A DNA stretch of 64,000 nt from Squalus acanthias (GCA_030390025.1 CM059431.1:94490001-94554000); one strand, 5' to 3'. Positions 49,586-61,000 are shown, counted from the stretch's first letter. Made by a program: numbers and translations. Notes: generated by a model from the letters alone, not told the origin.

Positions 49586-50738
49586 CTGACATTCCAGGGA
49601 ATCTAATAATGAATCAAGGACTGGAACTCACTAAAGCTGACGTAAGCTAGAAAACAGTATTAGAAAAAATAATATGAACGTACATACGAACATACGAATT
49701 AGGAGCAGGAATAGGCCACTCAGCCCCTTGAGCCTGCTCCACCATTCAATAAGATCATGGCTGATCTGATTACTCCACATTCCCGCCTACCCCCGATAAC
49801 CTTTCACCCCCTTGCTTATCAAGAATCTATCTACCTCTGCCTTAAAAATATTCAGAGACTCTGCTTCCACCACCCTCTGAGGAAGAGAGTTCCAAAGAAT
49901 CACGACCCTCTGTGAGAAAAAAATTCTCTTCATCTCTGTCTTAAATTGGCGACCCCTTATTTTTAAATAATGGCACTTAAGACTGACAAATCCACAGAAC
50001 CTGATTGTTTCCACCCTAATGGCTTAAAGGAAATAGGTGAGGAAATTGCAGATGCTTTAGCTATAATTTTCAAAAGCTGTCTTGATTCAGGAATTGTCCC
50101 TTTAGGTTGGAAAATTGCAAATGTAACTCCATTATTTAAGAAAGGTGTGAGAGAGAAACCAGGAAATTATAGACCTGTTAGTCTCACATCTGTTATGGGA
50201 AAATTATTGGAATCTATAATTAAGGACAAAGTGACTGAGCACTTAGAGAAATGTAAGCTAGTTAGAAAGAGCCAACATGGATATGTAAAAGGTAGGTCAT
50301 GTCCCACTAACCTAATTGAATTACCTGAGGAAGTAACTAAAGTAGTAGACAGATGAATGTCTATGGTTGTAGTTTATATGGACTTCCAGTAGGCATTCAA
50401 TAAGGTTCCACATAAGAGACTGTTCGCTAAAGTTAAAGGCCATGGAATTGAATGCAAATGCACGATGCACGATCTGTCCATGCCCTTTGAAGGTAATGCA
50501 GGCAGCACGCGAAATTCATACTGCCTGCTAATTAACATAATGGAAGTGCTGAGCGTAATGCTGAACGCACTGCTGGTTGGCTCAGCACTCAGCAGGGGCT
50601 CCAATTTTGTGGGAAGTGTGATCTCTATTTAAAGGTTGCCTGCAGAGTGAAACACTGTCTGCACTTCTTAAAGGGGGGGTGTGCTTTCTGAAAGAAGCAC
50701 CTAATTGTTAGCGTAGGTCAGGAAAGGGGAAGGTACCA

Positions 50739-52633
50739 ATGTCGCAACATGGCAGAGAAAGGGCACCTTGGTTCTTGGACACAGCACTGGAGGCCTTAGT
50801 GCAGGGGGTCGATAGGAGGAGACAGGCCCTCTACTCGCAGGGGGCCAGGAGGCCCTCCAGACAGACTGTACGAAGGCAGTGGGAGCAGATTGCTGAAACG
50901 GTCAATGCTACCAGTCTTTCCCCCAGGGCCTGGATCCAGTGCCGAACGAAGTTTAATGAGTGGTCAAGGTCAGTGAATGCATCTTCAAATGTCATATCCG
51001 ACCATCTGCACCACTAGCCTCACACATTGCTCAATGCACCACACACCCATCACTCACCTACCAACAATCTCTATCAATCACAACTCATATCTAACAATCA
51101 TAGCTTCACCTCGCCATCACACACTTACCAATGTTACAAGCCTCATACCCACATCTTACACATTTCATACTATTCAACCATGACAAGCATATCACCCAAA
51201 CACATTGCACCGCACTCACTGACACACTTCCCTTTCTCTTGCAGGCCAAGGTGGCACATAACCGGCACCAGCAGCAGCTAACAGGCAGGGGGCAGGCACG
51301 GCTGCAGAACCTGACCCAGCTGAAGGAGACTGTGCTGGATATCATTGGAGGGGCCGTCACTGAGTCCGTGGTGATCTGCAAGGCTGAAAGCATTGATGAT
51401 GACGGTATGCTCATAGTTAATCTTCATTCTCACATCCTACTTCCCCCTCATCCCACAATCTCTTCTCACTTGCCAGCTGCTAATGGTGTAAGCATGCACA
51501 TTTTCCTTTCCCTCCGCCCCCTCACCACAATCCTACCCTTGTGCCTTTCTCCTTTCAAATACCGAAGAACTTCCACCAGCCCAGCCTGTGCATGAGAATA
51601 AGAGGAGGAGGGTGTTAGAGAAGAGACACTGTCAATTGATCTGACACTCGCAGGCACCAACTCAGAAAATGTTACTGCGCGAACTTTAGAGGGTAGTATA
51701 GAGGCATGATCTGCATGTGGTGAGTCACCGGGCACGAGTGGGCAGCAGCCAGGACAGGGGAAAGGGTAACACAGGGGCCAGCTCCCCAGAGGGTGAGGTC
51801 ACACATGGGTTCTGCTGCAGTGGAGTCAGATGAGGACTTTGATGGGGCAGCCTTCGGAAGAAGGGTGAATGACATACACATGGAAATGCTTGGTGAAATG
51901 CCAGGTCTACCAGAGAGCCTGTTGTCACTGTCAAGGAGAATGAAGGCGTCCAGCTCCAACTTTTCCCAAACCTTTGCGCAGAGCTTGGAGTCCATGATTT
52001 CCAGGATGGAAGTGATGAGCAACTCCATTAGAGCACTTGTGGCCCCAACCATGATGCAGGGTCTGATTGGGCAATGTCTCAGCTTCCATTGGAGCACAAG
52101 TGGAAGCAACAAAACGTCTGAGTGCTGCAATGGAAACTCAGACTTCTGTTATGCAGGCTCAGCTTACTACCATGCAAACTCAGACTGCTGCCATCATGGC
52201 TGCATTTACCAGTGTTGAAAGGGACTTTCAGGGTCTCTCAGTCCAGCAATCTGCCCTCCAACAGATTACTCGGATTGTTGAGGCGCCTCCCTGGGGGAGT
52301 GGCAGTGGCTCTGTGGAGCATGAACCTGCTGTCCTCTCTCAGGGTGACAGGTTTCATCCTCCCACCACTGCCACTGCATCAGTGCCCTTGCTGTTGCCTG
52401 TCAGCCAGCCAGTACAGACTGCTGCCCCCCATGCCGAGGTGGTGCAGTCTACAGCTGGGCCTTCTAGGTCCAGAGCTGCTCGAGATTGTCCTGCAAGGCC
52501 ATCTGCAGTCTCCCCCATGAAAAGTCAGCAGCCTTCCACCAGCCATGCTGCAGCCACTGGCATAGCACTTTGTAGGAGCACTAGAATAGGCAAAGGCACA
52601 CAAAAGACAGACATTAACGGAATGTACAAGTTG
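50739..52633 (+). pseudogene. Harbinger Myb/SANT gene, 3 exons (50739-50968, 51245-51404, about 51560-52633)
   Basis: RERAPWFLDTALEALVQGV..WEQIAETVNA..WIQCRTKFNE; exon 2 AKVAHNRHQQQLTGRG; GT donors at 50969 and 51405. Confidence 0.82.
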
Positions 52634-52894
52634 ACCTTGTTATGTAATTTTGGAATTAATCCTTTATAAATTATGTTTGGAATGTTTCTTATGTGGTGGC
52701 TTTCATTTCAGCATTGTGACCAAGAGGACGCTGTGATGATCCGTGACAGAGGGTTGGTAAGGTGGGGAAATGTTGAGCAACGGGGATCTGGGGTTTCATT
52801 CAGGGGAACCGGAATCTGATGATGCGCTCACGGACAGCCTGTCAGGAACGGGGATTTGCAGGCTGTCTCTTCCTTCCTCCTCCTCCTCCTCTTC

Positions 52895-53141
52895 CTCCTC
52901 CTACTCTTCCTCCTCTCCCTCCTCCTCCCCCTGAGGTGGTCGTGGAACCTGTGGTGGCAAGAGCTGTGCCCTCATGATAGCCAATTTGTGAAGGATGGAG
53001 CATGTAAGAAATAGCTATTAGATTCATAGATGAAGTTTGACTCTTAGAACAGAAATTAAAATGCAGTCAGGAACAAATGGTTGAAGTGTCAGCAAGGTCA
53101 AATAACAAACACCAAAATGATAAGAGGATCGTAAAATGCAA
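52895..53141 (+). repeat. 247-bp direct duplication, copy 1 (copy 2 at 57168-57414), flanking the ERV
   Basis: No mismatch seen by eye; offset 4273 bp. Confidence 0.93.
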
Positions 53142-54443
53142 CAAGCCTTCTATAAAGTTCCGGCTAAAGTTAAAGAGACCGAGTACCTGTCGTACTCCTC
53201 TCACGTTTATGGGCCTTGGCATTTGGCTGATTGCCTCCTTCCTTTCCTCTGGCATAGCCCTTTTTCCCATACTGACCCTATACCCGAGGTATGTGACTTC
53301 CAATTTTCCTACCTGGGCTTTGGCTGGGTTTGCTTTAAAACCCGCCTCCCGTAGGGTTGAAAAGACCTTTACCAGGGCCCCCTTATGTCCCACTTTCGTT
53401 TCTGACGCTATTAGGAGGTCATCCACGTATTGTAAGAGGGTACTATTTTCACCCTCTAAGTCTAGGTCTTCAAGAGCTCTGGCCATATGGCGGTGAAAAA
53501 TGGCTGGACTGTTATGGAATCCTTGTGGGACCCGTGTCCATGTATACTGTTTGCCGCCTATTGTAAAGGCGAACTTTTCCTGTGATTCCTCATGCAGGGG
53601 AATGGACCAGAACCCGTTTGCGATGTCTAACACGGTGAATATTTTGTGTTCCGGTTTTAAACCGTTAAAGATAGTAGCTGGGCTTGCTACAATTGGATAT
53701 TCCTTTGGGGTCACTTTATTTAAGGCTGTGTAATCGATTGTAAGTCGATATGACGCATCAGGTTTCTTTACGGGCCATACTGGAGAGTTAGTGCCGGACA
53801 CTGTTTCTCGCAGAATTCCCTGTTTCACGAGTTCCAATACTATACTCCGTACGGCTGTCTGGGCCTCCACTTTTAGGGGATATTGTTTATGGGGTCGGTG
53901 GGTTGGCCCGGGGACTCTGACTGGGTTCATCTTAACCAGTCCGCAGTCCTGCTTGTGTTTGGCCCATAGTTCGGGGAATCGGTGGCAAATTGCCCCCCAC
54001 CCTCCCTTTTCGTCCCATTTGGGGTCTATTATTTGGATAGCGCTGATGGCACATGCTGTCTTGGATCCCTTTGAGTTATGTCTCCCTTCCTTGTGGTTAT
54101 CGGGCCATAGCAACTTATCCTGTTTGGGGTCTATTAAAACTCCCACTTCCCTTAGTATGTCTATACCCAGGATGGTTCCCTCAGTATTCTCACAGATCCA
54201 GAAACATGTAGGTATAATGATTTTTCCCAATTCTAGTAATACTGTCTCACTTTTCCATGCTTTAATTTTTACTCCCCCTATCCCAGATATAAAAATATTT
54301 TCCTTGGTTCGCGGCAAGGGTACGTTTGTTAGAGATATTGCTGCCCCGGTGTCTATGAGCATTCTGCACTGTCGGCCCCCTACCAGTGCCTCAATAAACA
54401 TTCTAGGGTCTCCCTTTACCGGGTCTCCGAGGGCCGCTACCTT
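53142..54443 (-). CDS. pol: Retroviral protease + reverse transcriptase (truncated; no RNase H or integrase)
   Basis: LIDTGA, ILGIDIL (PR); KQYPL, NSPVWPVKKPD, LDIANGFWSIP, YTWTRVPQGFHNSP, QYVDD (RT); same frame as gag after TGA. Confidence 0.93.
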
Positions 54444-55991
54444 TCAGGCGTTGCCTTTTTTTATCTGTTTGACCAGTTTTTCCATTTTCCTTGTCAGCTC
54501 CACTATGTCTTCCTCGTCGGAGGTGTCTGAGGAATCATCTCTCTTATACTTCCTACTCTTTCTCCTCTTCCTTTCTTCTCTTTCTCTGTCATCCTCCCAG
54601 TCTTGCATTCCCTTCCTGATCAGTTTCGCCATGCTTTCCTCGTTATTCTCTGACCTTCCAATACTTGACCCCGGTTTTCCTCCCTGTCTAGGTCCCTGAC
54701 CTTCCCTTCCTCCTCCTTTATTCCAACATTGTTGTTTCCTATGCCCTGGTTTTCCACAATTATGACAGGAAGCCTTTTGCTGAGATGTCTGATTATCCCC
54801 TTTGTTCTGTTGCCTCGGGCAATCCCTTTTCATGTGGCCCTCCTGTCCGCAACCGAAGCATGCCGCCACACTTAATGCATCCTCATTGTCGCTATCCGTC
54901 CTTAGGGCAGCTATTTTAGGTTTGGCTTGTTCTTGGACCTGATTATCTACTTCGCACGCCCACTGTATTAAGTCCTCCCAATTATGGTGGACCACTAGCC
55001 CCATTTTTATTGCATTCTGGTGCATTGGACTTAGTCCCTGTTTAAATGTTTGCAGAAAACAAGCGTTGTTTTTGTTTAAGGGGCCTGGGATCCCACAGTT
55101 ACCCTCAAAGGCGGACCACTTTCGTTTTCCATAATCGATAGCGCTTTCTCCCTTTTCTTGTGTGATTCCGCTTATAGCTGCCCAATTTACGGGGGCCTGT
55201 CCCATTGCTGCTTCCACAGCGGCCTTGAATTGGTCGAACTCAGTGTTTAATTGTTGGATTGTCTGTCCTGTATTTGTGGCCCACTGGCCATTTCCGTGGT
55301 TGCCCTGCACTAATCTCCACTGTTCCTCGGGACATTTAGCTCGTACCAATTGATCGATATCTATACTATGTAGGGCATGGTTTATGCGTACTTCGCGCAG
55401 TTTGTGCCAGAATGTCTGATTATTCTGGCGGTGTTTTAAGGCTGGTAATTCATTGAGGAGAATCACCCGATCCTGCAGGCTTAACGGTGTGTAGGTCAAC
55501 GTTGTGGTGGCCGGCCTGCCCGGTACTGCCGGGACGGCCGGATTCCCCCCTGCCGCCGGAATTTCCGGAACCGCGGGGATTGCTGGCCTATATTGCAGTG
55601 TCACTGGTGCCATCGGAACAGGCTCCGGGGCTGCCGACTGGTGTCCTGTATATGGGGGAGGACAGCCAGTCGGCCCCCCCTGGGGCAGCTCCGGGTATAA
55701 CCTTTCCTGGGAGTTACCCGGTTTTGGGTTGGCTGCAGCTGCTGGATATGTTTTAAGGGCTCCGCGCTGGAGCATACGTTCCCGATCGTATCGTGCCGCT
55801 ACGATAATGCACGCTTTCTCCAATTTATTTTTGGTTTGTTTCCTCCACCAGTCCCTTTGTGTGTCTGGTTTATCGTCCTGGTTCCACCCTGCCTTTCTCA
55901 TTTTCTCAATTAATTTTTTATTCTTGTCGTAAACATATCGTGTTACAGACTCTGGGTCTCCCCAGGGTTCCTTATCCTCTTTGCTAGCCAT
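54444..55991 (-). CDS. gag: Gag polyprotein, 515 aa, intact
   Basis: LYPEL and PPPY late domains, MHR-like ITQEKGESAIDYGKR, two CCHC knuckles CFGCGQEGHMKRDC and CHNCGKPGHRKQQC. Confidence 0.93.
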   Translation of the reverse strand: MASKEDKEPWGDPESVTRYVYDKNKKLIEKMRKAGWNQDDKPDTQRDWWRKQTKNKLEKACIIVAARYDRERMLQRGALKTYPAAAANPKPGNSQERLYPELPQGGPTGCPPPYTGHQSAAPEPVPMAPVTLQYRPAIPAVPEIPAAGGNPAVPAVPGRPATTTLTYTPLSLQDRVILLNELPALKHRQNNQTFWHKLREVRINHALHSIDIDQLVRAKCPEEQWRLVQGNHGNGQWATNTGQTIQQLNTEFDQFKAAVEAAMGQAPVNWAAISGITQEKGESAIDYGKRKWSAFEGNCGIPGPLNKNNACFLQTFKQGLSPMHQNAIKMGLVVHHNWEDLIQWACEVDNQVQEQAKPKIAALRTDSDNEDALSVAACFGCGQEGHMKRDCPRQQNKGDNQTSQQKASCHNCGKPGHRKQQCWNKGGGREGQGPRQGGKPGSSIGRSENNEESMAKLIRKGMQDWEDDREREERKRRKSRKYKRDDSSDTSDEEDIVELTRKMEKLVKQIKKGNA

Positions 55992-56018
55992 AGTTTATTT
56001 ATTTATTTATTTATTTCT

Positions 56019-56400
56019 TTTTCGGCCAGAAGGAACTCCCCGTTTTAACTACTACCTAAGTTTACTTTTCGGCCAGAAGGACTCGCCCTCCACCGTGTTA
56101 AAACTCCCCGTTTTAACTACTACTTAAGTTTACTTTTCGGCCAGAAGGACTCGTCCTCCACCGTGTTAAAACTCCCCGTTTTAACTCCTACTTAAGTTTA
56201 CTTTTCGGCCAGAAGGACTCGTCCTCCACCGTGTTAAAACTCCCCGTTTTAACTCCTACCTAAGTTTACTTTTCGGCCAGAAGGACTCGTCCTCCACCGT
56301 GTTAAAACTCCCCGTTTTAACTCCTACTTAAGTTTACTTTTCGGCCAGAAGGACTCGTCCTCCACCGTGTTAAAACTCCCCGTTTTAACTACTACTTAAG
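56019..56400 (-). repeat. 68-bp tandem repeat array in the ERV leader (5 units + 1 internally deleted unit)
   Basis: TTTTCGGCCAGAAGG at 56019, 56066, 56134, 56202, 56270 and 56338. Confidence 0.95.
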
Positions 56401-56628
56401 AGCCGCACCTCGTGGGCCTATCAGGTTTCTAAACCCTTGTTTTCCGGTACCGCAGTCCGGCAGTGTTAACCGCCTTCAATTAAAGGTGTCTTTCTTTTTA
56501 TAGTTCTTTTGTACGTCAATCTTACTTAACGTCTCGCCAGCGATTAACCTCTAATTTTACAGGTGGTAATTTAAACGTACTCACCCGTCTTAGGTTATCG
56601 CTGTCCGAGAGTTTTGTTCAGATCGCGC

Positions 56629-56646
56629 ATCCCATCCTCGTCGCCA
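56629..56646 (-). promoter_or_regulatory. Primer binding site for tRNA-Ser(GCU)
   Basis: TGGCGACGAGGATGGGAT, 2 nt after the LTR CA; complementary to the vertebrate tRNA-Ser-GCU 3' end ATCCCATCCTCGTCG-CCA as I recall it. Confidence 0.9.
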
Positions 56647-56648
56647 AT

Positions 56649-57167
56649 TGATGTAAGCTCCCAAAGTGCGGACCCAGTGATATACAAGGTCGACGCTACT
56701 GAGCTTGTTGGAAGAAAGACTGACCAAGTAATTGAAGTCACAACGGTTTATTACAGGCCTGGGGAGAACCTCTCATGTCGCTTACATGAGTACAACTCCA
56801 CCGAGCTAATGAAAACACACATATTTATATCCAATCAGGTTTAAAAGTTACACACAATGCTAGGTCTAAAAAAACACATTACTCGTTTTACAAATATTTC
56901 TGTCTTGCCTTTACAGAGATCCAATTAGGTTTAAAAGTTACTTGGTTAGCAAACATTTCTGTCTCGCCTTATGGGGATCTCGTTATCCGAGGGTGGCTGT
57001 AAAAGTTACATACAATGCTATCTGTAAATCTCGTTGAAGGAGGTAGACTCCGAAAGCTTGTAAGGTGTTGTGTGACTTGAAACAAATCTCGTTAAAGGCC
57101 TGGCTTTCTGCAAATGAGTCATGCCCGAATTGCCCTGGTTATATCCAATTTTTAATATCTTACTTCA
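56649..57167 (-). mobile_element. ERV 5' LTR (519 bp)
   Basis: Termini TGAAGTAAG...CTTACATCA; TATAAA near 56825-56830; AATAAA at 56747-56752. Confidence 0.9.
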
Positions 57168-57275
57168 CTCCTCCTACTCTTCCTCCTCTCCCTCCTCCTC
57201 CCCCTGAGGTGGTCGTGGAACCTGTGGTGGCAAGAGCTGTGCCCTCATGATAGCCAATTTGTGAAGGATGGAGCA

Positions 57276-58025
57276 TGTAAGAAATAGCTATTAGATTCAT
57301 AGATGAAGTTTGACTCTTAGAACAGAAATTAAAATGCAGTCAGGAACAAATGGTTGAAGTGTCAGCAAGGTCAAATAACAAACACCAAAATGATAAGAGG
57401 ATCGTAAAATGCAAGAAAACACAGGAGGATAACATCGTAACTAGAAAACAAAGAGCCACAAAGTCATAAAATGTCCTTAAAGAAACATAACAAAACATTC
57501 CTCAGAAAGATAAGAGAAAGGCCTTGTCAGCCATGCAGAAAGGGGCAGTGAGAAATGTCTGCCCGCACCACACTTGGATTATAAATGATTGACACTAGAT
57601 AGATCACAGCCCACCGAAATAACTATAAATATAGACCACTGAGAGAGGAAATCGGACAGCGAGGGGTGAAGGCTTTTTCGACGTGGAAATCAACACTGGC
57701 TCAGACTAAGTTTAGCCTCTGAGGTGGATCAATGCTGGCTTATGCCTAACACCTCCAACAGCTCGGGGGACGAATCAACAGAAGTGACTGCTGTTACTGG
57801 CTGCAGAGACCCGCTGACCCGAGACCTCCAACCGTCCATCCGGTCGTGGCATTCCGCTTCGGGAGTTGTAGATCGCTCTCTACTGTCACGGGTTGTATGT
57901 CTATTATACTCAGCTTAAACCACATGTAATATCTGATGATGCATTAAAACTGTAGCTCTTTAATAAAAAGCCTTACAACTCCTAAGACCCTTTGGGTAAT
58001 CTGTGTGTGACCTGTGATCCTAACA
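57276..58025 (+). mobile_element. Solo LTR (750 bp), unrelated to the ERV LTR
   Basis: TGTAAG...CTAACA, GCA/AGCA target duplication, TATAAA near 57624, AATAAA near 57962; interrupts the transposase codons VVVC|SILH. Confidence 0.85.
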
Positions 58026-61000
58026 GCAGACCACCACACATTGGGACACCCACTCCAGTAAGTGCTGGAGAGCTCCTCCTGAGCGGTCAAGGTCGTGGAA
58101 CCATTGCTTGAGCACCCCAATAGTCAGCTCATTGACATTCCTTGTGGCAGCATGGCTGTCATTAAATGAGTGCTGGCCACGAGTGGTGGGTTTGTGTAGG
58201 GGAGTCATCGGCCAGGTGTACAGCGGATAGCCCTTGTTGCCTAGCAGCCACCCTCTTGTTCGACATGGCGGCTGAAAGATTGCTGACACAGCGGACTGGC
58301 ACAGGATGAAGGCATCATGACTGCTGCCAGGATACCGTGCATTCACCATCATGATGTGCTGGGCGTGGTCGCACGCCAACTGCACAATAAGTGAGTGGTC
58401 GCCTTTGTGGTTACAGTACATCTCAGCATTGATATGTGGCACCTGTTTGTGCAGTTGATGGCACCCTGCATCATGGGGAAGCCTGATATCCTGGCAAAGC
58501 CACATGTATGCCCCTCCTGCTTCTCTCTGTTTAGAGAGAAGAAAATTAATTTCCTCCTCCTAGAGTACAGAATATTTGTGACCTCCCAGTTGCAGCAATG
58601 GGTGGCGAACTGTGAGATCTTTGTTATGTTGCCTGTTCCAGTCTGGAAGGATCCGTTGGTGAAAAAGTTCAGGGCCATGGTCACCTTGAAGGCCACTGGC
58701 AGCACCATCGTCATCCTGCTCTGAGGTTGCAGGTCTGGTAGCAGGAGGTGACAGGGTTCTGCGACCACCTCCGTGGTGAAGCGGAGCTGCTGAACACACT
58801 GCTCCTGGCTTAGGTGCAGGTAGGAGAAGTGCTCCCTGAAGACCCTGGGTAGGTAAGACCTCCTGCTGAGAGCCCATCTCCCCCCCACTCCTCCTCCCTC
58901 TGCGAGCAGCTTGTCTTCTTTGCTGCCTCTGTTCCAGCCCCCTGTCATGCTGTAGCACGAGGAGGACTGCAACTAGAGCCCCCATGACTGGGAGCAAGTG
59001 GTGTACTCCGAGACCTTCCAGTAGCTGCCAACACCTTCCCAACATCCAGCAGCACTCCCTGCACACTTTAACAAGGTTATAAATAGCTTCCAGCAACCCA
59101 GTACAGACTCTGCAAGAGCCAGTATGAGAAATAATCAACTTACCTGCAAGTTGGATGTATCCCTGTAAATAATGCTGGTGGGGGCAGGCGGGTCCTTTGT
59201 GTGGCTTTAGGAAAGGGAATTGATTGGAGTGGCGACATCGAAAATGGCAGGTCTTGCTTCAAATCAGCGTTACATGCTGACTGAAGTCGTGATCTGCCTA
59301 CTCTGCATACTGCCGACCTGCTCCTGCTCCTATTTCTTATGTTCGACATATAGGTGAGAAACAGGCCTAAGTCTTACACACCCAGTCCCACCAACCAGCC
59401 CCACAAGGATAGCCACTGGCTGTCTCTTCTATACCCACTGAGTGTAAATGTTGGTGAGGAGGCTGGGCCCAACAGCCGCTGGATTTGCCTGCTTACTGCT
59501 GCTGTCTCTATTGACTCCAGGGACCTAGCAAGCATAGGGTAGCAGTAATCCCTGGGGCAGTAGTGGTAGCCCCCTAACTCACAGAATCGAGGGTGAAGGT
59601 CGAGTAGTGGTCGTCTCTCCCTGCACATAGGCCCCAAATGCAATTCTTTCCCCTATTGGCTGAATCCGATGCCATCAAAGAAAATTTAAATGCACCACTA
59701 CATTTTCTGGCCTTTAATGGTGGGGGTCCCACTGGGAGCCCAGCATGTTTACTTAAAGAGTCCTGTCCCAGGAAAATAGGTCGGGGTTACGACAGGTTTA
59801 GGGCGATGGGTTCACTGTGAGGAAAGTCCAGCCCTACACCTTCAAAGTGTATGTAGAACATCATCTTAGTAGATGATTCAATGTAGTTTTCAGCCTCTTC
59901 CATTCAAGCAGCCTGACTCACACTTTGTCATTCTGGTTTTCTCCTATTGTTGCGTTATTATTACCATCTCTGGTCAGAATGGCTGTGAATATTACAGAAA
60001 GAGGAAATGTTTAATTGTGTGCTGGTAAACCAGGCAGCTGACCATAAATTAAATTGTGGAGTCTTCTCACATTACAGGCAGTCTGTGTCAAGCAGTGGCC
60101 ACACGTGACTTTTGAAATATAATCCATAGAAACTGTGGGCTCCATTCAAAGCACAAAACAGAGTTTGGTCATTTCACTCTCCCAGCAAGGAGCCTCACCC
60201 ACCAGCAGAATGTATCAGAAATCTGACCATATGTTGTGTGTGGCTTGCCAGTAGGTGAAGCGCTCAGCTGGGAGCACAAGATCAACAATTAGCCGGCATT
60301 AACAACAACAACCTGTATTTATATAGCGCCTTTAACGTAGTAAAACGGCCCAAGGCGTTAAGTAAATAAGCATTGATAAAATCAGGTGCTGAGTAAAGGT
60401 GCAATGTATTCATAAACAAGTGTTTGGTGGACAGATGGCACAAAGGCATATGTCCTATCGAAACAGCATCACATCACCTCCATATCACACGATCATTATA
60501 AAAATGATACACTCTCTGTCTGATGCCCTCAAACAGAGAGAAGGCTCTGTGGAGACAGTGCCCTATTTTATTTTAGAAGGGAGAAGATTTCCCATGTCAC
60601 ATTGTCAGGATGATATGAGGGCTTGGTTTCACAATCGGGCACCCACAGAGGGCATGGAACTGGAATTCATGGGTTGTGATTAGCTGAGTTGCACCAGCTA
60701 CAGGTACCACTCCTCACTGGCAGTGCCCGGTCGCAGGTTCGGCCCTCGTGACACGACGGCACATTTCATTCTGATTCACATCACGGTCCGTTTAGAAATT
60801 AAAAAGGGATTCTGTTGACAACAGTACCCCTCACAAGTAATGTGTGGGTTTATGAATTAGCTTCCCCAGCACATAGCTTCATGGAGCCAGGAGCATTGAG
60901 CAGAAATGTTTTTATTCATCCATCACTCACATTCAAAGAGCATTGCCTTGCACAGGTTAGAAAGAATGCCATAGAATGTTTTTGTCACTGTTGCAGACAG

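Follow-up and report, generated by a model that had tools for sequence, protein, structure and literature searches.

A 5′ proviral fragment in the Squalus acanthias genome and the young, snakehead-retrovirus-related endogenous retrovirus family to which it appears to belong

INTRODUCTION

Endogenous retroviruses (ERVs) related to snakehead retrovirus (SnRV) have been gathered under the name 'clade Huo', to which the cited excerpt of Xu et al. (2018, PMC6001957) ascribes the widest host range. In sharks, CmiERV lineage I lies near SnRV, epsilon-like ERVs have also been described, and two complete elephant-shark proviruses were dated to 54.5 and 75 million years, according to the excerpted text of PMC4422223. 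Foamy-like ERVs of sharks are represented, in the excerpts used, by CmiFLERV (PMC5512871) and by ERV-Spuma.0-Sca of the small-spotted catshark (PMC10699275), the latter source dating catshark ERVs to ~35.9 million years. Across these partial sources, shark ERVs near the position considered here are filed as SnRV-like, as 'clade Huo' or loosely as 'foamy-like'. Here, we analyse an ERV found at 53142-57167 on the minus strand of a 64-kb stretch of the Squalus acanthias genome (GCA_030390025.1, CM059431.1:94490001-94554000), and 'the window' denotes the whole of that stretch.

Lokiretroviruses were reported from five vertebrate classes, and the abstract of PMC7947760 does not include cartilaginous fishes among them, which agrees with the host range given in a first-pass annotation of the window; for the Gag of the lokiretrovirus Bik-1, a coiled-coil N-terminus and a glycine-rich tail are described in the excerpt of bioRxiv 2024.03.25.586437. 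That annotation had taken the element for a very young ERV with an unusual combination of features, either spuma-related or lokiretrovirus-like. Our analysis favours, with a probability of about 0.8, a young multi-copy ERV family of orthoretroviral type, which stands in a basal grade with SnRV and has its nearest relatives in sharks. We take the element for a new member of the SnRV-related retroviruses already known; it is not a foamy virus, an epsilonretrovirus or a gammaretrovirus, nor, within the limits of the tests, a lokiretrovirus.

RESULTS

Reverse transcriptase similarity and nearest relatives

The reverse transcriptase (RT) of the element carries the motifs VLDIANGFWSIPL, QYTWTRVPQGFHNSP and QYVDDLL, and foamy genomes read LDL[AS]NGFW and Y[CV]WTRLPQGFLNSP. 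The resemblance to foamy RT asserted in the first-pass annotation is real, since in comparison with solved structures the RT scored 175 bits with foamy PR-RT and 168-172 bits with RT of the murine leukaemia virus (MLV) type, a tie by which 'foamy-like RT' is right as a description of resemblance; Ty3 (94 bits), HIV-2 (88 bits) and HIV-1 (~77 bits) scored lower. In the alignment, identity to three foamy RTs was 33-34%, and the gamma RT insert seen in MLV and reticuloendotheliosis virus (REV) was missing from the element.

When the joint frame of protease and RT (pro-RT) was searched against a protein database, 181 of 4933 candidates matched at E<=1e-3, and the results given here concern the best 120 of these 181. 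The top matches were P0001 and P0122 (59% RT identity) and P0003 from Heterodontus francisci (53-57%), the 90% cluster of P0001 including Mustelus asterias XP_078069418.1; ERVs of fishes, amphibians and the coelacanth followed at 36-45%, and class I ERVs and REV reached 31% to pro-RT. The shark proteins (the Mustelus asterias cluster and the Heterodontus francisci protein) are thus nearest to the element, and at 53-65% RT identity they represent different families. The Gag of P0003 is like that of the element in its two knuckles and its major homology region (MHR), at 33-36% identity, and its protease is lost. No paper describing these Mustelus or Heterodontus relatives was found in our literature searches.

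Position in the RT trees

Reference retroviral genomes were drawn from a viral-contig collection by motif and profile scans, which returned in turn 13 confirmed of 52, 26 stretches, 36 confirmed of 66, 25 stretches and 1 confirmed of 82. A single-protein scan of the viral contigs confirmed 0 of 4 stretches and a metagenome scan with P0124 confirmed 0 of 30; a second metagenome scan confirmed 2 of 230, both belonging to the P0004 family, with gag present and no env. References were labelled by Pfam matches, i.e. gamma by Gag_p30, MA, p12 and TLV_coat, and foamy by Gag_spuma, Foamy_virus_ENV and Spuma_A9PTase; other labels were delta (Tax), lenti, beta, alpha, gypsy and one caulimovirus. Contig L065 is SnRV, its Gag being an exact match to NP_043925.1, and a 12,708-bp genome was presumed to be of the walleye dermal sarcoma virus (WDSV) type.

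For tree 1, 64 RT cores picked from 170 were analysed with IQ-TREE over 289 columns, the rows dropped being mostly near-duplicate bird ERVs or foamy or gamma genomes. In tree 2 (65 rows), three long rows were taken out and four rows from a foamy search put in to break the long foamy branch, namely P0330 (Logan foamy virus), P0331 (a foamy-like ERV), P0333 and P0334 (a caecilian protein). The retrovirus nature of the element was borne out, in that Retroviridae including the query were separated at 100/100 from the gypsy rows (nine in tree 1, seven in tree 2). In tree 1, foamy viruses (100/100) formed the first branch and the remaining retroviruses were joined at 87/85; the query paired with P0001 (99/84), then with P0003 (97/93) and with P0004 (95/83), and support for the clade of query, P0001 and P0003 was 97/93-95 over both trees. 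The deep branching claimed for the element was also recovered, because the query lay outside a clade of epsilon-type, gamma-type and class II rows in both trees (97/98 in tree 1, 98/98 in tree 2).

Of the four rows added in tree 2, three joined the foamy viruses, and P0334 fell among class I rows in a quick tree. Foamy viruses, P0331 and the catshark RT P0333 made a 100/99 clade of 10 rows with the query outside it, and all other retroviruses were joined at 92/84. Within these, the query clade (97/89) fell into a polytomy whose other members were class I plus class II (98/98), the SnRV clade (99/92), a cyprinid clade and P0084, a long single row. The RT phylogeny that had been proposed as a check on the element contained spuma, SnRV, epsilon and gypsy references and placed the element outside the gypsy clade, and it left the SnRV node as a polytomy.

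Three groupings were compared on the first data set by the approximately unbiased (AU) test. Joining the query clade with the SnRV clade was the cheapest (log-likelihood difference, dlnL, 3.0; p 0.19), followed by placing the query clade outside all other retroviruses, as a lokiretrovirus-like position would have it (dlnL 13.6, p 0.039), and by joining it with foamy viruses (dlnL 15.3, p 0.090). These p-values are soft, because the groups were chosen with a first tree already in view.

As an observation apart, P0333 is a predicted protein of Scyliorhinus torazame annotated as PR-domain-containing, and its RT is 54% identical to foamy RT. Its place in the foamy clade indicates that true foamy-like ERVs do exist in sharks and that they are not the family of the present element.

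Gag of the element

By regular expression, Gag shows YPEL at residue 99 and PPPY at residue 111 (the YPxL and PPPY late domains), an MHR pattern Q-x3-E-x7-R at residue 278 and two C-x2-C-x4-H-x4-C knuckles at residues 378 and 409, and with its MAS start it has no Gly2, all as the first-pass annotation had read it. Pfam matched only zf-CCHC (1.5e-6) in this protein: Gag_p30 (PF02093) gave no match at E<=0.1, and Gag_spuma gave none in the element, the foamy reference L017 matching three such families. In an AlphaFold model (mean pLDDT 77.5), a confident N-terminal helical domain is followed by a disordered linker with the late domains, a two-domain capsid, the knuckles and a long helical tail. 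Foldseek with this model returned whole capsids, MLV capsid (CA) 6hwx first (E 3.2e-6) and then those of human T-lymphotropic virus 1 (HTLV-1), bovine leukaemia virus (BLV), HML2, HIV and Rous sarcoma virus (RSV). Moreover, a family profile built from a 24-row Gag alignment matched the orthoretroviral capsid C-terminal domain and nucleocapsid (CA-CTD/NC) in 6rwg (3.4e-20) and RSV Gag 5a9e (1.2e-16), with further matches to 8pug (1.7e-12) and MLV CA (4.9e-5). Profile and fold matches together make this Gag orthoretroviral.

Homology to SnRV Gag was detected by BLASTP over residues 306-436 (E 2e-12, 33% identity, 133 columns); the two proteins aligned throughout CA-CTD/NC, and the homology takes in the stretch directly after the knuckle. 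An exhaustive HMMER search with Gag gave 736 proteins at E<=1e-3, of which 42 reached E<=1e-10 and 5 reached E<=1e-30, with P0003 at the top and Caretta caretta and Anguilla anguilla among the named members. In the 24-row alignment, two strict knuckles were found by regular expression in 7 rows, one knuckle in 7 and none in 10, these last being mostly fragments; the strict MHR pattern is kept in 15 of the 24, and two rows besides that of the element combine YPEL with PPPY or PPAY. Contrary to what had been supposed, the combination of features is therefore not unusual: the RT motifs also occur in cyprinid relatives and the P0004 family and have near-identical counterparts in SnRV, two knuckles are present in 7 of 24 Gag relatives, and SnRV-related elements normally show such a combination.

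At 54447-54650 (Gag residues 450-513), a long charged helix after NC is predicted, with good confidence in parts, and in its last segment it can be aligned with the C-terminal ends of the SnRV (L065) and P0004-family (L066) Gags. Judged from the alignment, the tail after NC appears to be conserved across the query, SnRV and the P0004 family.

Comparison with SnRV

In SnRV as in the element, a single stop separates gag from an in-frame pro-pol, Gag starts MAS and has no Gly2, and the RT motifs are near-identical; the two Gags also have homologous CA-CTD/NC regions, share the stretch that follows the knuckle and carry a helical tail behind NC. Joining the two by RT was the cheapest of the three groupings compared and is not rejected (see above). 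SnRV is unlike the element in that pro-RT identity is only 35%, SnRV has one knuckle and the element two, and the two fall in separate clades of the polytomy in the free tree. The primer-binding site (PBS) of SnRV, which we take to be that for tRNA-Arg, differs from the tRNA-Ser site of the element.

Copies of the family in public sequencing runs

Contigs of four public runs under two organism labels were compared, three of them DNA runs and the fourth (X7) guessed to be RNA. Contig pieces, the longest of 2049 nt, covered the ERV with 0-3 differences each (>99.8% identity), and family copies differ by about 0.1-0.2%; the first-pass claim of great youth is thereby supported. The window copy departs from the majority at 53652 and 55157 in 4/4 runs and at 54499 in one. 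Contig word depth reached ~570 in a run of 2.0 Gb, against ~33 in one of 0.17 Gb, and contigs of the long terminal repeat (LTR) had ~1.4-3.5 times the depth of internal contigs. More widely, runs of six organism labels from 8 studies contained 32-80% of the words sampled from a stretch of which the ERV makes up 74%, no run listed among them being marked as RNA. Should the runs be ordinary shotgun sequencing of a few-Gb genome, the depths would correspond to hundreds of copies or more.

In all four runs, contigs end or change exactly at the LTR edge, 57167. A loose end was seen at 53143 in all three DNA runs, and a contig of X7 runs 186 nt beyond this position. Contigs extend past 53143, unlike the window, by up to 2012 nt, and one reaches 2944 nt beyond the LTR start, so that other copies presumably carry the rest of pol and a 3′ internal region. 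A very young, multi-copy family is supported by these observations, and it looks to have been recently active.

Between 56301 and 56481, small indels and raised depth occur among other family copies in the run contigs; probably the number or form of the 68-bp repeats in the leader varies between copies.

Provirus anatomy and the gag stop

The window copy is the 5′ 4.0 kb of a minus-strand provirus, with LTR, PBS, leader, gag, protease and partial RT (Table 1). The intact gag, the pro-RT frame open up to the break and the RT motifs were all found where the first-pass annotation had placed them, and the PBS, called perfect there, equals the first 18 letters (18/18) of the human tRNA-Ser(GCT) primer published in PMC9072684, as far as the cited excerpt gives it. 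An LTR with TG...CA ends, a tRNA PBS, the order gag-pro-pol and an RT within the retroviral clade are features of Retroviridae that the copy shows. Three further features, i.e. the 68-bp leader repeats, a 247-bp flank repeat and a (TCC)n/Harbinger target, go beyond that earlier description.

No RNase H, integrase or env was found anywhere in the 64-kb window, nor were a second copy of the ERV elsewhere in it or any tRNA gene, and no Rfam match at E<=1 was obtained across 52500-57900. Because it is without the RT end, RNase H, integrase, env and the 3′ LTR, the window copy is unable to replicate; in itself it is a dead fragment of ~4 kb with no further consequence.

Table 1. Coordinates of the element and its immediate surroundings in the 64-kb window
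Feature	Position	Strand	Remarks
5′ LTR	57167-56649	minus	519 bp; TG...CA ends; from sequence
TATAAAT box in LTR	56829-56823	minus	read by eye
AATAAA signal in LTR	56752-56747	minus	read by eye
PBS, tRNA-Ser(GCU)	56646-56629	minus	18 nt; 2 nt past LTR
Leader tandem array, 68-bp unit	56034-56400	minus	5.4 copies, 97% matches; between PBS and gag
gag	55991-54447	minus	515 codons, stop-free; starts MAS, hence without Gly2
gag stop TGA	54446-54444	minus	in frame with pro-RT; the two open reading frames (ORFs) abut
Candidate long-range stem	54373-54436	minus	54436-54429 pairs with 54380-54373; starts 8 nt past stop
pro-RT frame	54443-53143	minus	stop-free; Pfam RVP 4.6e-7, RVT_1 1.9e-36
Protease domain	54132-54398	minus	DTGA active site; RVP 4.6e-7, residues 16-104 of pro-RT frame
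Reverse transcriptase	53143-53996	minus	~280 residues; ends after NFIEG motif
RVT_1 core of RT	53771-53274	minus	Pfam 1.9e-36
Joint base	53142		matches neither upstream flank copy nor continuation in other copies
Upstream flank copy X	57168-57414		247 bp; 247/247 identical to 52895-53141; offset 4273
Second flank copy X	52895-53141		runs uninterrupted into rest of (TCC)n microsatellite
PIF/Harbinger-type transposon, part	50712-52669	plus	Myb/SANT-like ORF, PF13873 1.7e-8
PIF/Harbinger-type transposon, part	58020-59258	minus	DDE_Tnp_4 ORF 2.9e-22

SnRV and the P0004-family contig L066 likewise have gag and pro-pol in the same frame, with one stop between them. A candidate long-range stem past the stop is contained in the minimum-free-energy fold, the energy of which was no better than that of shuffled sequences (z 0.11), and it has 6 consensus pairs in 4 sequences, two of these pairs being changed on both sides. 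A G+C-rich stretch begins at equal distance past the stop in the query and SnRV.

The break, the flank duplication and the surroundings

Homology by tblastn to 7/7 relatives tried stops at 53142-53151, i.e. at the break within RT. The insertion target was a (TCC)n microsatellite within a PIF/Harbinger-type DNA transposon. This microsatellite (52875-52932) spans the boundary between X and the downstream flank, and at the first X copy it is interrupted by the LTR. The second X copy is continuous with (TCC)n and thus looks like an empty target site, so the order along the window is flank, 5′ 4 kb of the provirus, flank and empty-site continuation. The last part of X is, on the minus strand, a purine-rich (GGA)n run abutting the LTR. 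Readings of this run as a polypurine tract and of X as viral were rejected, as the run continues as (TCC)n into the downstream flank and X is nearly absent in run X5, where the ERV is present.

Next to the locus, 52500-52861 had a huge summed word depth in the DNA runs (~249,000 at 52500-52680 in X1, against ~570 for the ERV), which points to a hyper-abundant short repeat or satellite. At 49967-50356 (plus strand) a short open frame with a weak RVT_1 match (5.2e-7), unrelated to the ERV, is probably a remnant of a long interspersed nuclear element. Outside the window, metagenome contig L036 (3549-5681) has a gypsy-type pol followed by a gene matching the Monjiviricetes fusion glycoprotein PF24664 (8.7e-260); by its gene content, it is an env-carrying gypsy element with a predicted glycoprotein of negative-strand-virus type.

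DISCUSSION

That the element is a foamy-like ERV (FLERV), a basal member of the spumavirus lineage, we consider improbable, although ANGFW, TRxPQGFxNSP and LGLxNFxRNFI are shared with foamy genomes, foamy PR-RT is narrowly the top solved-structure match (175 versus 172 bits), the AU test does not reject the query clade with foamy viruses (p 0.090), and some shark ERVs carry the label foamy-like in the excerpts of PMC5512871 and PMC10699275. The clade of foamy viruses with P0331 and P0333 (100/99) leaves the element out, and an RT identity of just 33-34% to foamy RTs, a Gag with MHR, two knuckles and an orthoretroviral capsid fold, and a pol in frame with gag behind just one stop codon all speak against a foamy origin. 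The protease matches RVP and has no Spuma_A9PTase (PF03539) match at E<=0.1, unlike a real foamy reference; moreover, cyprinid relatives and the P0004 family share the RT motifs of the element, and those of SnRV are near-identical. 'Spuma-related' therefore stands as resemblance of RT motifs and RT scores, and falls in the strict sense on tree position, Gag type, protease family and gag-pol arrangement.

An ordinary class I ERV, epsilon- or gamma-like, is less probable still. Such an ERV would share the read-through arrangement gag-stop-pol, which is that of gamma- and epsilonretroviruses, class I ERVs and REV do follow the shark and fish relatives among the best 120 of 181 matches, and MLV gave the best capsid fold match; the clade containing the WDSV-length genome, the MLV-type genomes and their ERV kin (97/98, 98/98) nevertheless leaves the element out, and both a Gag_p30 match in Pfam and the gamma RT insert of MLV and REV are absent. 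We give the slightest chance to the reading as a lokiretrovirus, or as a loki-like lineage that is the sister group of the remaining retroviruses. Lokiretroviruses are like the element in being deep-branching and fish-borne and in an MLV-like capsid fold, the RT is about equally similar to foamy virus and MLV, the branch joining the query with non-foamy retroviruses has only 87/85 and 92/84, and the reference set held no loki sequence for a direct exclusion. The position outside all other retroviruses is disfavoured (dlnL 13.6, AU p 0.039), however, and the Gag has knuckles and is homologous to SnRV Gag, where the excerpt on Bik-1 describes a glycine-rich patch; the host class is also unreported for lokiretroviruses, being absent from the five named in the abstract of PMC7947760. 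The lokiretrovirus-like proposal of the first-pass annotation is not supported.

A separate question concerns the break alone. The truncation and the 247-bp duplication may come from misassembly of a locus at which a full-length insertion is heterozygous, an account that we take seriously while placing it somewhat below even odds. The flank copies are 247/247 identical, against 6/137 differing bases in another genomic copy of the X repeat, the second copy goes on into an intact-looking empty site, none of the listed contigs bridges 53142/53143, and the family is young enough for polymorphism. On the other side, the joint offers no common sequence to mislead an assembler, and its one base that fits neither side is more like end-joining; the silence of the contigs carries no weight, since a single-copy joint is unbridgeable at such low coverage, and for the same reason the lack of listed contigs bridging 57167/57168 is no evidence either way. 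In the account that we consider likelier, RT loss and duplication of X would have followed from a break inside the provirus, repaired by end-joining or by copying from the empty allele.

Several points weigh against our favoured identification as a young SnRV-related family. The absence of env, integrase and a second LTR in the window means that this copy alone cannot separate a retrovirus from an env-less LTR element, and with a single LTR no LTR-LTR age is computable. Youth and copy number rest on contig depths, and depth is not copy number; the organism labels are coded and may denote closely related hosts or a single species. The decisive node is a polytomy, a sister relation to foamy viruses is not rejected by the 289 columns of RT alone (p 0.090), and the trees were built without lokiretrovirus, ERV-L or published shark ERV (CmiERV, CmiFLERV, ERV-Spuma.0-Sca) sequences. 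A word-index search with Gag gave no match at E<=1e-3 among 8000 candidates, relatives being found by the exhaustive search alone, and the read-through structure is a hint only (z 0.11, 4 sequences).

For the SnRV-related family favoured here, established retrovirology suggests how the parts would work together. The LTR would drive transcription and tRNA-Ser(GCU) would prime minus-strand DNA synthesis; Gag would be made alone, and Gag-Pro-Pol by read-through of the in-frame UGA. CA with its MHR would then build the shell, the two knuckles would package RNA, and PPPY and YPEL may recruit the budding machinery of the endosomal sorting complexes required for transport (ESCRT).

Among published shark ERVs, CmiERV lineage I, CmiFLERV and ERV-Spuma.0-Sca fall in the same region of the tree as the element, at the SnRV/foamy-like base, a likeness drawn by description only from the excerpts of their sources. 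The published shark ERVs are given there as ~35.9-75 million years old, against a copy difference of 0.1-0.2% in the family of the element. A survey of 2004 vertebrates, 13 of them cartilaginous fishes, sought ERVs with identical LTRs and intact genes (PMC10435555); the figure legend of that paper names 37 host orders, none of them chondrichthyan, the supplementary host tables lying outside the part covered. No description of the family was found in the literature searched, supplements not covered, which is no proof of absence. With no report found of recent ERV activity in cartilaginous fishes and the published shark ERVs being old, such activity looks new for this group.

We also considered, as a tentative and rather unlikely extension, that the family is a separate genus-level lineage beside SnRV that is still invading the shark germ line or has just stopped doing so, with hundreds of near-identical proviruses shared by several host species. 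Were this so, cartilaginous fishes would for the first time show a sign of retroviral endogenisation that is still under way, possibly with cross-species spread. Apart from that extension, the element contributes an intact Gag that can be folded, together with new taxa, to the SnRV part of the retroviral tree, where resolution is weak and on which the order of the foamy, SnRV-like and class I splits depends, and a shark family with 0.1-0.2% copy difference and intact gag would extend recent retroviral activity to the oldest branch of the jawed vertebrates.

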